Positions 15,901 through 59,685 of a stretch of 64,000 nucleotides of DNA are shown in pieces. The notes below the pieces were generated by a model. The model had not been told where the DNA came from. It saw only the letters and a list, made by a program, of their open reading frames with translations, and did not search any database. The translations under genes were made by a program, and so were the position numbers. Origin of the DNA: a virus; IMG/VR virus record IMGVR_UViG_3300025519_000044, positions 27,359 through 91,358 of that record, one strand, 5' to 3'. Position 1 is the stretch's first letter; the number at the start of each line of letters is the position of its first letter.

Positions 15901-18097
15901 AAATCAAGCGACACAAAGTGCGAACAACGCGAGTCAAACAGCGTCCGATGCGGCGACACAAGCCAGTAGCGCGTTGACACAAGCACAGAGTGCGATGGCA
16001 GAAGCGCAGAAAAAGGCGGATGCATCCAGCGTTTATACAAAAACAGAGATTGATGATGCGCTCGAGGGTTACGCTACCACGACCACGGTCAACACGCTTA
16101 CGGGGCGTGTAGACAGCGCAGAAACGGCTATTCAGCAAAACACCGATGCAATACAGCTTAAAGCCGATAAATCGACCGTTGACACGCTCACGGGTAGGAT
16201 TAGCACGGCAGAAGCAACTTTGACCGCGCAGGCTGACCAAATTGCAGCGCGAATCACTGAAGCAGATGCAGATGCTAAGTACGCCACGCAGACGGCACTA
16301 ACGGCTACTGCAAATAGTTTGACGAGCAATATTTCAGCTGTACAAACAAATCTCGATAACTTGAAAATCGGTGGTAGAAACTATTTAAGGGGAACGGGAA
16401 CGCCTAAATCCATTACTGCAACTAATGTAAATAACCAAACGTTCACACCTTACTATTTTGTAGGTAATTCTTCAGCCCCTATAATGGATAAAACTATAAC
16501 TGTTTCTTTTGACTGGGAAGTCACTGGCGTCGACTCGCCTTCTGGTGTATTCAGGGTTCAGGGGAGCAATCCTTGGCCGACCATTACTGATAATGTAACT
16601 TTATCATCAACAAATAAAAAAGGACATGTTTCACAGACTAGAACAATAACAGGTGACCCTTTCAGCGGAGTAAACTTTAGACTTGATAATGTAACTGCAG
16701 GGGCAGTTTTAACTATATCAAACATGATGATTGAACTTGGTAATAAAGAAAGCGACTGGACACCAGCCCCCGAGGACATGGCGACTCAATCCCAAATCAG
16801 CCAGCTGTCGGATGATATTAATTTACGCGTACAAAAAAACGATGTGATCAATCAAATTAATCTCAGTACCGAGTCTATTTTAATCGGTGGAAATAAAGTT
16901 CACATCACGGGACAGACCACCATTGACAATGCGGTTATAAAAGATGCAATGATCGATAGCATGACAGCCGACAAGCTTACGGCGGGCACGATTGACGCAA
17001 ATGTGATTACGGTTAAAAACATAAACGCCAGCAATATTGTGACGGGAACGCTAGATGCAAGCAAAGCCACCGTTACAAACATCGACGCGTCTAATATCAC
17101 CACAGGCACGCTAAACGCCGAACGTATTGCCGCCGGCTCCATAGATGCAAGCAAGCTGAACGTTATGTCCTTATCTGCACTTTCGGCAAATCTTGGAAGC
17201 GTAACAGCTGGAAATATTTCCGGTGTGAACATAAACATTGGAAATGGGAACTTTACAGTAGATACATCCGGAAACCTTGTTGCAAAATCCGCAAATATTA
17301 CAGGAACGATCACTGGTTCGACTATAAACGGTAGTGAATTTAATTCTTCAGGTGAAAATGGAGAAATCCATATTTACGATGAATTTATTGAGAGCTTCGA
17401 ACAAATATCTGACATAGAAACAAGCTTAGCCATTATCAGCAGTGGAAATTTTTCACAAACATATCGAGTAAGCTCATCAATATATAAAGAATCCTCGCTT
17501 GCTCCAGGTAGCTTGATGATATATGACATCAATAGTAGCGAGACAGATATTACCGGCGGGGAAATTACAACGGCACAAATCAATATCACATCGGGATTTA
17601 CGGCATCAAATGGAGGTGGAAGTATTATTTTAAAAAACGGCGATATTGTTGGAATAAACGCCATTTATTTAAACGATGCTGCCAATGTCGATAGTGAAGG
17701 ATTGATATTTCCGTGGTCAACATCAACTAATGTATTAGATGTTACACAAGCCGATTGTTTGCGTGCATATAACGGTAGATTATTATTAAACGGAGATGTA
17801 GTCCATACTGAAAAAAGCATGATGATTGCTTGCGGAACTGTTGCTATTACGCCAAGTTCTAGCAATACTCCGACTTATAAGACAATAAGTTTTGGGAAAA
17901 CATTCCCCATTGTTCCAACCGTTGTGGTCACACCTAATTCAACGGTACCAGGAACAACCGTAACGGGTTGGGCTGTAACAGATGTAACGACAACAGGATG
18001 TAAAATATGGGTTACTCGTACAAATACAACCAATACATGGTTAAGTTGGGTTGCTGTAGCTGATAATACAAATTGGACAGCAACGGCAGTAGGCTAA
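12947..18097 (+). CDS. Tal/tail spike-fibre fusion: baseplate hub, beta-propeller receptor-binding domain, coiled coil, carbohydrate-binding module, H-type-lectin-like C-terminus
   Basis: N-terminus homologous to 51244-53727, C-terminus to 53740-56403; GGGHG.NFGIE propeller motif; A/Q/T-rich repeats. Confidence 0.8.
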   Translation: MYTILDPDLKVCGFLSLDGSQGCKFYDDLRTTMIADDQGKVWNDTLQISVPYGHRETELMKNGYHLAVQGDDGRFYCYRIYNYTDSAVGPVHVKSVQAINLCIWDLNHITLSDKTFTNIKSTDAFNFVLRGSGWQIGTENFVGTADSLEFTADQKAQAGLDNCINEYGVEVRAYVEIYAGQVVNKKIDILQELGVSQGRRLEYSRDLQGITRTGDDSEFYTLLHVYGPEDSDGNKITISSINGGKDYVVDDDANDVYNHGGPYLEGYVASDNIKQKQALLDWGKEQLQKYNHPKFTYTVDVAYLGYLPGLGDHIEVVDFSMQPELTIAARVLQRDISEANPQNTKVTIGEFVEVVAVTPADIWELQAKASQAQQAAEKALQYKVEAFTPDGLDFATNTEQKRVIIRVYEGTENVTYSLDKAAFVWQKINADGTHDTDWEAAHVGIGNIITVGIEVAGSTIRCSIGDATSAPVLFAEESDAAYFATLPMDNPSDDVNTHVAQYAQVDAKNGYIYWSQEYFGSKKSSNGGWQSFSITRTTLDGEFVDQMWVIGGGHGSNFGIEHSGSDVYIWSAMINTSKSTLNGTTYWGVARFKYTPGAIVKYGASGVSFYSFGSTTYYRVNFDEKNNYVHLSKGEATFYVCKTTDIKNGVFKPLYTMDASEAGFNGSDQTFQSSCLDFPYVYFCAGDMDGHDQRVMYCADIRSRSLVYKIVYTFDKGTVNQIGAYNEPEAISVYYDTDGTKWLVQGFSWGNEDAEDSQRTNQLFRIRETQNNSAGTDSGSIVATSPDVVFTNATQVATDAQGTATQAAATAAGAAETAGQAQQTATQAADAAGQAQATAQTASQTATQAAATAADAAQAAQTAITTANGKNKAYYGATTPTSPQSGDIWFVTDANGEVTAIRHWDDTQWVDDVDNVAVQEAIDEANQAAANAQQVGEQAQQTAEQAAQTGEQAQQTAEAAQNAANQAQQDANVAKTQAQSAVDTANQATQSANNASQTASDAATQASSALTQAQSAMAEAQKKADASSVYTKTEIDDALEGYATTTTVNTLTGRVDSAETAIQQNTDAIQLKADKSTVDTLTGRISTAEATLTAQADQIAARITEADADAKYATQTALTATANSLTSNISAVQTNLDNLKIGGRNYLRGTGTPKSITATNVNNQTFTPYYFVGNSSAPIMDKTITVSFDWEVTGVDSPSGVFRVQGSNPWPTITDNVTLSSTNKKGHVSQTRTITGDPFSGVNFRLDNVTAGAVLTISNMMIELGNKESDWTPAPEDMATQSQISQLSDDINLRVQKNDVINQINLSTESILIGGNKVHITGQTTIDNAVIKDAMIDSMTADKLTAGTIDANVITVKNINASNIVTGTLDASKATVTNIDASNITTGTLNAERIAAGSIDASKLNVMSLSALSANLGSVTAGNISGVNINIGNGNFTVDTSGNLVAKSANITGTITGSTINGSEFNSSGENGEIHIYDEFIESFEQISDIETSLAIISSGNFSQTYRVSSSIYKESSLAPGSLMIYDINSSETDITGGEITTAQINITSGFTASNGGGSIILKNGDIVGINAIYLNDAANVDSEGLIFPWSTSTNVLDVTQADCLRAYNGRLLLNGDVVHTEKSMMIACGTVAITPSSSNTPTYKTISFGKTFPIVPTVVVTPNSTVPGTTVTGWAVTDVTTTGCKIWVTRTNTTNTWLSWVAVADNTNWTATAVG

Positions 18098-21100: not shown

Positions 21101-21128
21101 AAAAAAGCCCTCGCAAATGCGGGGGCTT
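21101..21128. terminator. Hairpin terminator after lysis genes
   Basis: AAGCCCTCGC-aaat-GCGGGGGCTT; T tract on minus strand; conserved at ~59524-59549. Confidence 0.7.
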
Positions 21129-21155
21129 GAAATTTAAAAAATAACGTGATAATAT
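21127..21155 (+). promoter_or_regulatory. Sigma-A promoter of repeat-like RNA, copy 1
   Basis: TTGAAA-17 nt-TAATAT with extended TG. Confidence 0.75.
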
Positions 21156-21161
21156 CTTTTT

Positions 21162-21266
21162 AAAGGTATCGCGTCCTTTTAAAAAAAATGCGTGGATTGA
21201 AACTGTGAATTGGATATTTGAGCTAAGCCGAAACTGCCGGGGCTTATTCCTCGGCAGTTTTGCTTT
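21162..21266 (+). ncRNA. Solitary type I-C-like CRISPR repeat RNA (candidate RNA anti-CRISPR or crRNA-like guide), copy 1
   Basis: ATCGCGTCCTTTTAAAAAAAATGCG-TGGATTGAAAC (21168-21203), ~21 nt tail, terminator hairpin 21225-21265. Confidence 0.72.
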
Positions 21267-21268
21267 AT

Positions 21269-21315
21269 AAATAAGGTCGTAAAACCCCTACGCCTTTAGG
21301 CTAGTGGTAGTTCAA
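21269..21315 (+). mobile_element. Possible minimal IS200/IS605-family end remnant
   Basis: Follows TTTAT; hairpin CTAcGCC-ttta-GGCTAG; ends GGTAGTTCA; absent from block 2. Confidence 0.35.
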
Positions 21316-21336: not shown

Positions 21337-21729
21337 CTAAATATTTGTTTCCCAGGCATCCACAGTTGCTTTCATAGCTTCCATGGCATGTTTTTTTGTG
21401 GGAAAATGTTCTATGCCGGATTCCCCGTCATCGACATTGTAAGACGGAACTTCATCCGCATACGGATATTCCGGTCCCCAAGCGAAGAAGTAATTTCCAT
21501 TTTCGGCCTTCCCGACGGCGTAGGCCTCGCCGTTATTTGGGAAGTTGTCACGCAATTCAACGATTTCTAATACCTCCACTTTCAACTCCTCCTCTTTTTC
21601 CTCTACATATTTCCTCATCAATTGTCGGATGACTTCACTCTTGTTTTGCATCAGTGCTTCATTTACGCGGTCGAACCGATCAAGAAGGTCCTGATCAATC
21701 CTGTATTGCCTCGTACGTTTCACTTTCAT
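21337..21729 (-). CDS. Ribbon-helix-helix domain fused to acidic domain (Aca-like/Acr candidate)
   Basis: GGGAGG RBS; RTRQYRIDQDLLDRF..NKSEVIRQLMRKYVE pattern; homolog 60552-60944. Confidence 0.75.
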   Translation of the reverse strand: MKVKRTRQYRIDQDLLDRFDRVNEALMQNKSEVIRQLMRKYVEEKEEELKVEVLEIVELRDNFPNNGEAYAVGKAENGNYFFAWGPEYPYADEVPSYNVDDGESGIEHFPTKKHAMEAMKATVDAWETNI

Positions 21730-21766
21730 ACCTCCCATAACCAAAAAGATGGACACAACATGCGCA

Positions 21767-21795
21767 TTGACATGATAAAAGTTTGTGATTATAAT
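21767..21795 (+). promoter_or_regulatory. Perfect consensus sigma-A promoter driving the mini-array
   Basis: TTGACA-17 nt-TATAAT. Confidence 0.88.
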
Positions 21796-21800
21796 TAGTC

Positions 21801-21896
21801 CATGAACCATAACACAGGGTGTATTTAAATAGTATCTTTTTAATTAATTAACCTGTGCTATTTTTTATTGAACCGTAACATGAGATGTAAGGGAAG
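21801..21896 (+). CRISPR. Phage-borne mini-array (repeat-36 nt spacer-truncated repeat), I-B-like repeat family
   Basis: R1 21801-21830 CATGAACCATAACACAGGGTGTATTTAAAT; spacer 21831-21866; R2 21867-21889 ATTGAACCGTAACATGAGATGTA then degenerate. Confidence 0.78.
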
Positions 21897-21925
21897 AGGG
21901 AGCGAACATAAATCCGCTCTCTTTT
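21894..21925 (+). terminator. Terminator of mini-array transcript
   Basis: AGAGGGAGCG-loop-CGCTCTCTTTT. Confidence 0.65.
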
Positions 21926-22435
21926 CTATTTTTCCGGTTTCCCGAATTTTTCCGTAAGCGCAGTTTCTGATATAAACGTATAGGCGCCGTTACTTTTAAA
22001 ATGGCCATCCGGATAATCGGCGCCGTCTATCTCTTCCACCGATATGCCCCAAGTTTTTGCGGCATCCTTTGCTTCCCACACCTTAATGCCAAGTGGTTTA
22101 AAAGTTTTTCGCATTTCCCGGTACATTTCGTATGCTTCCGCGCGATTCTTTCGTTTGTTATTACGTTCTGCTATTATTTCCTTTATTTTATCGGCAGCCG
22201 CCAGAAACTCATCTTCATCTACTTCCCACGTTCCAACCGTTTTATAATCTGTTTGTAGTCTAGATTCGCTGTTGTCGAAAGTGGTTGACGGTAAAACCTC
22301 CCCAAGGCTGAATATGTAATCTTCCTTAACGGCATGTTCGACAATCGCAAATGCCTCGGCAGCTTTTGGTGTCCCCTTTACAAGCTCCGGGTAAACAGTT
22401 TCGGAATAAGACGTTTCTTTATACACAATTTTCAT
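21926..22435 (-). CDS. Hypothetical; acidic N-terminus, degenerate HTH-like C-terminus (Acr candidate)
   Basis: AGGAGG RBS; DAAKTWGIS..FISETAL..FG resembles winged HTH. Confidence 0.7.
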   Translation of the reverse strand: MKIVYKETSYSETVYPELVKGTPKAAEAFAIVEHAVKEDYIFSLGEVLPSTTFDNSESRLQTDYKTVGTWEVDEDEFLAAADKIKEIIAERNNKRKNRAEAYEMYREMRKTFKPLGIKVWEAKDAAKTWGISVEEIDGADYPDGHFKSNGAYTFISETALTEKFGKPEK

Positions 22436-59582: not shown

Positions 59583-59685
59583 AAAGGTACCGCGTCCTTT
59601 TAAAAAAAATGCGTGAATTGAAACTGTGATTTGGATATTTTGAAGCTGAAACTGTCGAGATTTTATGTCTCGGCAGTTTTGGCTT
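59583..59685 (+). ncRNA. Solitary type I-C-like CRISPR repeat RNA, copy 2
   Basis: ACCGCGTCCTTTTAAAAAAAATGCG-TGAATTGAAAC 59589-59624; tail TGTGATTTGGATATTTTG; hairpin 59643-59685. Confidence 0.7.

Follow-up and report, generated by a model that had tools for sequence, protein, structure and literature searches.

What use a phage could make of a CRISPR-like unit that holds a single guide, and whose Cas proteins would handle its RNA, is the question raised by a short locus in a virus record of 91,358 bases from IMG/VR (G000). The window, by which we mean the whole stretch of 64,000 nucleotides analysed here, covers positions 27359-91358 of that record, and this stretch is present in public sequencing runs of metagenomes (bioreactor, compost, biogas and solid waste) and in RNA-seq of an isolate. 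A preliminary description of the locus, made from its letters, had listed a promoter, a first repeat (R1), a 36-nt spacer, a second, shortened repeat (R2) and a terminator, had named a Firmicutes family of Cas6-processed type I-B repeats, and had proposed that the RNA loads host Cascade either to repress a promoter or to attack a competing element. Here, we describe the anatomy, conservation, transcription and relatives of the unit, and weigh these and other uses of its guide.

The phage record and its host

In record G000 two different temperate phages stand one after the other, phage A (48,934 bp) first and phage B second. The two phages share an island of 1.5 kb at 97.6% identity and the A/B join runs through that stretch, which contains the unit, so that the unit occurs twice in the record. 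Reading G000 as a concatemer was rejected, as just these 1.5 kb (97.6% identity) are common to both parts; the tandem of two phages may be a cointegrate, a pair of tandem prophages or an assembly join. The final 126 bases of G000 repeat its positions 1481-1606. In the window, the unit is flanked by the lysin and holin genes of phage A on one side and by the integrase and CI-like repressor genes of phage B on the other, and such a post-lysis location is a classic place for cargo expressed in lysogens. Relatives of the large terminase subunit (TerL) reach at most 81% identity and are scattered across several families.

By its spacer matches, the host of these phages is Heyndrickxia coagulans. 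Spacers of H. coagulans strains 2-6 and 36D1 match records G001 and G004 and a 48,934-bp DTR genome, which has the length of phage A, and the IMG/VR host call for those spacer-matched records is B. coagulans (PMC8954581 Table S7). Two spacers of the GTTGAAC-type I-B array of strain 2-6 could be placed in G000 at 100% identity (16407-16442 and 16681-16715), with flanks that give the PAM 5'-TCA. Both fall on the winged helix-turn-helix (wHTH) gene that heads a type IV module of phage A, described below, one overlapping the start codon and one lying inside the gene. Cas-associated type I-B arrays with repeats of the same family as the unit are known from Weizmannia (Heyndrickxia, Bacillus) coagulans 2-6, H-1 and P38 (PMC8954581 Table 4), and the species also has type I-C arrays (PMC8954581).

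Architecture of the unit

All five parts of the unit lie, to the base, where the preliminary description had put them. Transcription would be driven by a sigma-70 promoter on the plus strand (21767..21795) with TTGACA at 21767-21772, a 17-nt gap and TATAAT at 21790-21795, which scores 12/12, is the sole perfect site within the 2 kb scanned, and predicts a transcription start near 21802. The first repeat (psi-R1, 30 nt, plus strand, 21801..21830) ends in GTATTTAAAT, forms the hairpin ACAC-AGG-GUGU, and keeps its 8-nt handle ATTTAAAT intact at 21823-21830, with a predicted Cas6 cut between 21822 and 21823. It is followed on the same strand by a spacer-like guide (psi-S, 21831..21866), AT-rich and promoter-like, whose 36 nt are within the 34-37 nt of host spacers, and by the second repeat (psi-R2, 23 nt, plus strand, 21867..21889), which keeps a hairpin (ACAU-GAG-AUGU) and is handle-less, the final 7 nt of a full repeat being absent. 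An intact handle in R1 and an R2 short of its last 7 nt are thus what the sequence holds, as had been claimed.

The unit closes with an intrinsic terminator (plus strand, 21893..21932) made of a 12-bp stem and a 10-nt loop (hairpin 21893-21926) and then a U-run, with a fold of -31.1 kcal/mol (z = -3.0); a simple terminator scan missed it because of the 10-nt loop. The stop codon of a convergent gene for a 169-aa protein (21926..22435, minus strand) overlaps with the terminator hairpin; this gene lies beside the unit in all six copies, and its product has no match in Pfam or PHROG. As R2 lies exactly 36 nt beyond R1, there is a second repeat at spacer distance, where Racr RNAs and solitary repeat units have none. 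Taken together, the layout supplies what a single Cas6-made crRNA would require: 8 nt of 5' handle, 36 nt of guide, and a hairpin tag of 22 nt at the 3' end.

The two repeats are identical to each other at just 16 of 23 positions. Both match the Rfam family CRISPR-DR3 (RF01316) in register, R1 with 33.3 bits over model positions 1-30 and R2 with 24.7 bits over positions 8-30, scores that are both below the RF01316 gathering score of 41 bits and of which neither alone is significant in a search of the whole window; on these alignments R1 and R2 are relatives of the CRISPR-DR3 family, not canonical array repeats. A compensatory change keeps the repeat hairpin (ACAC/GUGU in R1, ACAU/AUGU in R2). 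Compared with the published H. coagulans I-B repeat, R1 is identical at 23/30 positions and R2 at 18/23, or 19/23 in the version found in records G002-G004, and for such a pair of repeats at spacer-like spacing within the window the chance expectation is about 2e-10. Because the DR3 matches are in register, the identity to the host repeat is as given and a chance pair is this rare, the family that had been named is real. The preliminary description had also held that its reading would fail if no host repeat resembled R1 and R2; the H. coagulans I-B repeat resembles both.

When the pattern of R1 was searched against 185,579 species genomes, there were no matches, and a plasmid search with the repeat yielded solely a promoter-driven solitary repeat on a plasmid of C. 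tetani, to which R1 is identical at 27 of 28 positions. The arrangement of promoter, repeat, AT-rich tail and terminator, with no second repeat, was seen on that plasmid (NZ_AP026813.1; L137 1420-1590), in Clostridium phage CWou-2020a (L008 2485-2600) and in genome G391 (L116 1480-1660). A stem of the ACAC/GUGU variant is common to the CWou-2020a and C. tetani units. All three are candidate crRNA-like anti-CRISPR RNAs of clostridial or low-GC elements, as judged from this arrangement; the I-B-like units of CWou-2020a and of the C. tetani plasmid differ from the H. coagulans phage unit in that they lack the second repeat.

Conservation among related phages

Five IMG/VR records carry the unit (G000 and four more), with six copies in total in two types of phage genome, G001 and G003 being B-like and G002 and G004 A-like. 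The promoter hexamers and their spacing are invariant in 6/6 copies, and 4 of the 17 bases between the hexamers differ in the G002/G003 type. From R1 through the guide, R2 and the terminator stem, the sequence is invariant save for three positions, namely the opening base of either repeat and a single base of the guide. The guide itself is identical in four records; G004 and the strain used for RNA-seq have C in place of T at guide position 3. The terminator has an invariant stem and one variable loop base. In G002 and G003 an unrelated gene stands upstream and homology starts just before the -35 hexamer, which marks a recombination breakpoint.

The gene exchanged in G002 and G003 codes in the window for a 130-aa ribbon-helix-helix (CopG-like) protein, the C-terminal part of which has no assignment, and is divergent from the promoter (21337..21729, minus strand; Pfam RHH_1, E = 7e-5; PHROG CopG-like repressor). 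Further upstream is a second promoter-driven element (21127..21270, plus strand), a solitary type I-C-like repeat that has a stem, ends in GTGGATTGAAAC and leads into a tail and then a terminator; it matches Rfam CRISPR-DR9 with 22.2 bits (E = 0.1). A second copy of this solitary repeat, with one change in the handle region, lies at 59609-59624, so that it is found after the lysis genes in both phages. The I-C arrays of H. coagulans have repeats that end in GTGGATTGAAAT (PMC8954581). Together, the solitary I-C-like repeat and the RHH regulator would be in keeping with an anti-defence island directed against both CRISPR types of the host, I-B and I-C.

Transcription in a lysogen

Raw stranded RNA-seq reads of a cultured lysogen isolate, which carries the G004-type variant, were aligned to the stretch. 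Depth in one strand class is 45 over 21788-21813 and then rises through 133, 235 and 340 to ~490 over 21944-21969, falling to ~200 by 22050, and in the opposite class it is 35-45 over 21814-21995, a bias of roughly 10:1. Coverage of the biased class begins between 21788 and 21839, matching the predicted start, and by the usual library convention the transcript is a plus-strand RNA made from that start. The depth beyond the terminator suggests partial read-through. Outside 21762-22003 the depths of the two strand classes are nearly equal.

Neither 21802 nor 21823 was called as a sharp 5' end, RNAs of 66 nt are lost from libraries of this type, and parts of the stretch are present more than once in the sequenced strain; the reads therefore establish transcription of the unit, not its processing. 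At 21737-21751 and at 22003-22008 reads diverge into other sequence, from which it follows that the strain has further copies of the island with other flanks.

The type IV-B-like module of phage A

Phage A also carries an array-less, type IV-B-like csf operon, which is present once and lies outside the window (G000:C1:16418-21126; L064 1919-6627). It comprises genes for a LexA-type wHTH protein, Csf1 (2e-17), a 157-aa protein, Csf2 (1.7e-21) and Csf3 (1.5e-20), together with a Cas6 (Pfam, 6e-13) and a CysH-like PAPS reductase (1.5e-28). Relatives of the operon are found in 8 IMG/VR records, with Csf2 identities of 73-89%.

The preliminary description had inferred loading of host Cascade, and a Cas6 encoded in the phage offers another possible user. 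The csf module is present in two of the five unit-bearing records, in one of which (G002) a stop interrupts the Cas6 frame. In G003 and G004, which are complete phages, the unit is present and there is neither a csf operon nor a Cas6. Conversely, in the complete csf-bearing records G006, G011 and G012, no such repeat was found within 8 mismatches and no array at Rfam level. Between the Cas6 of phage A and a I-B Cas6 of this repeat family there is no detectable similarity (E = 2.1). The unit is thus not tied to the csf operon, and host type I-B Cas6 and Cascade therefore remain its likely users. Two RNAs above their Rfam gathering scores were seen in csf-bearing records, a type II hammerhead ribozyme in G006 (L088 2511-2581, 39.4 bits) and an RT-9 RNA in G011 (L091 2897-2988, 81.9 bits).

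A host regulator of the same design

A counterpart in a cellular genome was found in the Bacillales genome G249, which has a cas6-cas8b-cas7-cas5b-cas3 type I-B locus with the same repeat family as the unit. Upstream of its cas6 lies a predicted CreR-like mini-array (L128, G249:C29, about 18265-18077, minus strand) in which the first repeat has its handle in full, the AT-rich guide is 36 nt long, and the second repeat has no handle and bears the ACAC/GUGU stem. The putative target of this guide is 33 nt beyond the mini-array, is TCA-flanked and abuts the -35 hexamer of cas6, and the guide matches it at 11 of its first 12 bases, the sole mismatch being at position 6. From its sequence, the G249 mini-array follows the CreR-type design for self-repression known from the literature, and the phage unit has an identical anatomy. 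The shortened R2 had been read as a trimming by the phage to what one crRNA needs; since the host regulator in G249 is trimmed in the same way, it is not an economy of the phage.

Host I-B mini-arrays upstream of cas6, as in C. perfringens, have been found copied into the Clostridium phages c-st and phiSM101 (Shmakov et al. 2023, 10.1101/2023.03.03.530964). The unit shares the CRISPR subtype, I-B, with those host mini-arrays, and the G249 example has both its repeat family and its anatomy. It differs from the cases of Shmakov et al. in coming from a Bacillales (H. coagulans) lineage, and the host regulator with which it is compared here is the one in G249.

Search for a target of the guide

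In the 8 related H. coagulans phage genomes, which were built from loci, no protospacer was found, the best seed being 12 nt long and without a TCA PAM. Among the 50,697 phage records of INPHARED there was none either, whether full or wobble-tolerant. Scans of IMG/VR with an exact 25-nt pattern and with patterns that leave every sixth base free returned only the unit itself or chance matches, and a scan of JGI metagenomes with one pattern of the latter kind returned only chance matches in marine contigs of 28-38% GC; these low-GC contigs match by construction, and the last two scans excluded T at PAM position -1, so that a target with such a T may have escaped them in the metagenomes. From such mismatch-tolerant searches the preliminary description had expected a full hit in another phage if the guide served competition between phages, and no full match in another phage was obtained. 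The lack of a protospacer in the phage genomes, INPHARED, IMG/VR and the JGI metagenomes argues against an interviral weapon and lends the proposed attack on a competing element no support.

Two short matches within the island were rejected as targets because they have neither a PAM nor seed register: 11 nt identical to the -10 region of the adjacent I-C-like unit, and a partial complement of 13 nt that lies upstream of the RHH gene. On the host side, 1,665 Bacillales genomes (a nested and partly repetitive order-level sample together with families around six centres), none of which contained an H. coagulans-type I-B locus, gave no credible site in a cas or creT promoter. Seed matches beside an M20 peptidase gene in G040 and inside a membrane-protein gene in G360 look like chance.

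Interpretation

We interpret the unit as a gene by which the phage makes a crRNA-like anti-CRISPR RNA of the Cracr type, which would mimic a host mini-CRISPR that regulates Cas proteins, be processed by host Cas6 and be loaded into host I-B Cascade, a reading to which we give somewhat better than an even chance. Viral Cracr RNAs silence cas or creT and compete with crRNAs, and candidates of type I-B in Bacillota have been listed (Liu et al., 10.1101/2024.10.29.618823). The unit resembles them in being encoded by a virus outside any CRISPR-cas locus (in the post-lysis island, and in the complete phages G003 and G004, which have no cas genes), in its degenerate, host-like repeats on both sides of a spacer-like guide, in having its own promoter, in mimicking the repeat family of the host and in lying among anti-defence genes. 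What defines a Cracr is a guide that shares at least 9 PAM-proximal bases with a host CreR or CreA guide or that matches a cas or creT promoter next to a PAM; for the unit the likeness is one of anatomy, and such a target is a predicted one. The guide also differs in length, as the guides of I-F Cracr RNAs are shortened to a median of 19 nt (10.1101/2024.10.29.618823) and that of the unit has 36 nt, a full length that would also suit a cleavage-competent guide. It further counts against the Cracr reading that R1 resembles the solitary repeats of clostridial elements more closely (27/28) than it does the published array repeat of the host (23/30).

What we infer is that Cas6 processes the RNA, that Cascade is loaded with it, and which target it has. 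The unit would be transcribed from its own strong promoter, in lysogens included, and host type I-B Cas6 would cut at the base of both hairpins, giving an RNA of roughly 66 nt that consists of the AUUUAAAU handle, the 36-nt guide and a 22-nt hairpin tag. This RNA would assemble host Cascade, and the resulting complex would compete with phage-targeting crRNAs. Most likely, Cascade would be parked by partial complementarity at a TCA-type PAM on a promoter of the host I-B cas locus and would thereby lower the supply of Cas proteins. Of the claims made earlier for the RNA, use of host Cascade gains from the host I-B arrays and from the occurrence of the unit in complete phages without cas genes, which make host Cascade its most plausible user, with loading itself still a prediction. 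Repression of a promoter appears, by analogy, to fit the precedent at the G249 cas6 promoter and the Cracr literature, with a target in H. coagulans that is a predicted one. Repression or competition is more probable than attack, with host Cascade as the likely user.

Rather than steering Cascade to a promoter, the RNA could act as a pure decoy in the manner of Racr RNAs, soaking up host Cas6 and Cas7 or building a Cascade that targets nothing, with a guide that has no target. Racr RNAs are promoter-driven phage mimics of repeats that probably compete for Cas6 and Cas7 (Camara-Wilpert et al. 2023, PMC10651486), and the strong promoter, the repeat mimicry and the lack of a target in the collections searched would all suit a decoy, as would the finding that a non-targeting crRNA alone lowers interference (PMC10651486) and the Racr or SRU form of the neighbouring solitary I-C-like repeat. 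However, for a decoy the 36-nt guide would be superfluous, as would a second repeat placed exactly at spacer distance, and both have been kept, the guide being near-invariant even in phages with recombined flanks; the published SRU finder also separates units of repeat, spacer and partial repeat as mini-arrays (PMC10651486). The second repeat and the conserved guide set the unit apart from Racr RNAs, and it can therefore make a complete crRNA, not only an aberrant subcomplex, so that we regard a pure decoy as unlikely. Slightly more unlikely is a guide for interference, by which the crRNA would arm host Cascade-Cas3 against a competing phage or plasmid and so exclude superinfection. Its full length of 36 nt and intact handle are those of a working guide, and cases are known in which a mini-array on a virus targets its viral relatives (PMC6858448; review, PMC11656645). 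The unit is like those virus-borne mini-arrays in being a viral array of one spacer that would use host Cas proteins (Medvedeva et al. 2019, PMC6858448) and unlike them in that their spacers match related viruses, whereas the unit has no viral match in the collections searched: neither the 8 related phages, the 50,697 phage records, IMG/VR nor the JGI metagenomes (T at PAM -1 being excluded in the last two scans) held a match to the guide, which is moreover very AT-rich and promoter-like.

That phage A has an array-less csf operon with its own Cas6 as well as the mini-array could mean that this Cas6 processes the unit and that a Csf complex uses the product, which we consider very unlikely. 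Co-occurrence fails both ways, with the unit alone in G003 and G004 and the module alone in G006, G011 and G012, the Cas6 frame of G002 is interrupted by a stop, and the phage Cas6 shows no similarity to a I-B Cas6 of the repeat family (E = 2.1). It is likewise highly doubtful that in phage A the distant mini-array is the missing guide of the csf operon, or is shared by host Cascade and the Csf complex; if it were so, the mini-array would be the first defined crRNA for a type IV-B system. There is, lastly, the scant chance that the unit has no function linked to CRISPR, being either the remnant of a captured array end that is decaying or some unrelated small RNA. The degenerate repeats (16/23 to each other) and their scores below the Rfam gathering score would suit a relic, against which stand a perfect promoter with conserved hexamers, the compensatory change in the hairpin, the exact spacing, and a unit that is expressed and has been retained in two phage lineages.

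The Cracr reading places the unit among phage RNAs that turn the Cas proteins of the host against its own CRISPR system. The use of RNA as an anti-CRISPR has already been described, and the unit adds a Bacillales type I-B example to a recently described class. Its setting is unusual, with a mimic of the I-C repeat in the same island, a type IV-B-like module with a Cas6 in phage A, and host I-B spacers that match the first gene of that module perfectly. H. coagulans can be cultured and is in industrial use, its strains include some that have the matching I-B system and some that lack it, and RNA-seq of a lysogen already exists. This system could therefore serve to test the interplay of RNA anti-CRISPRs, phage-borne Cas modules and host immunity.
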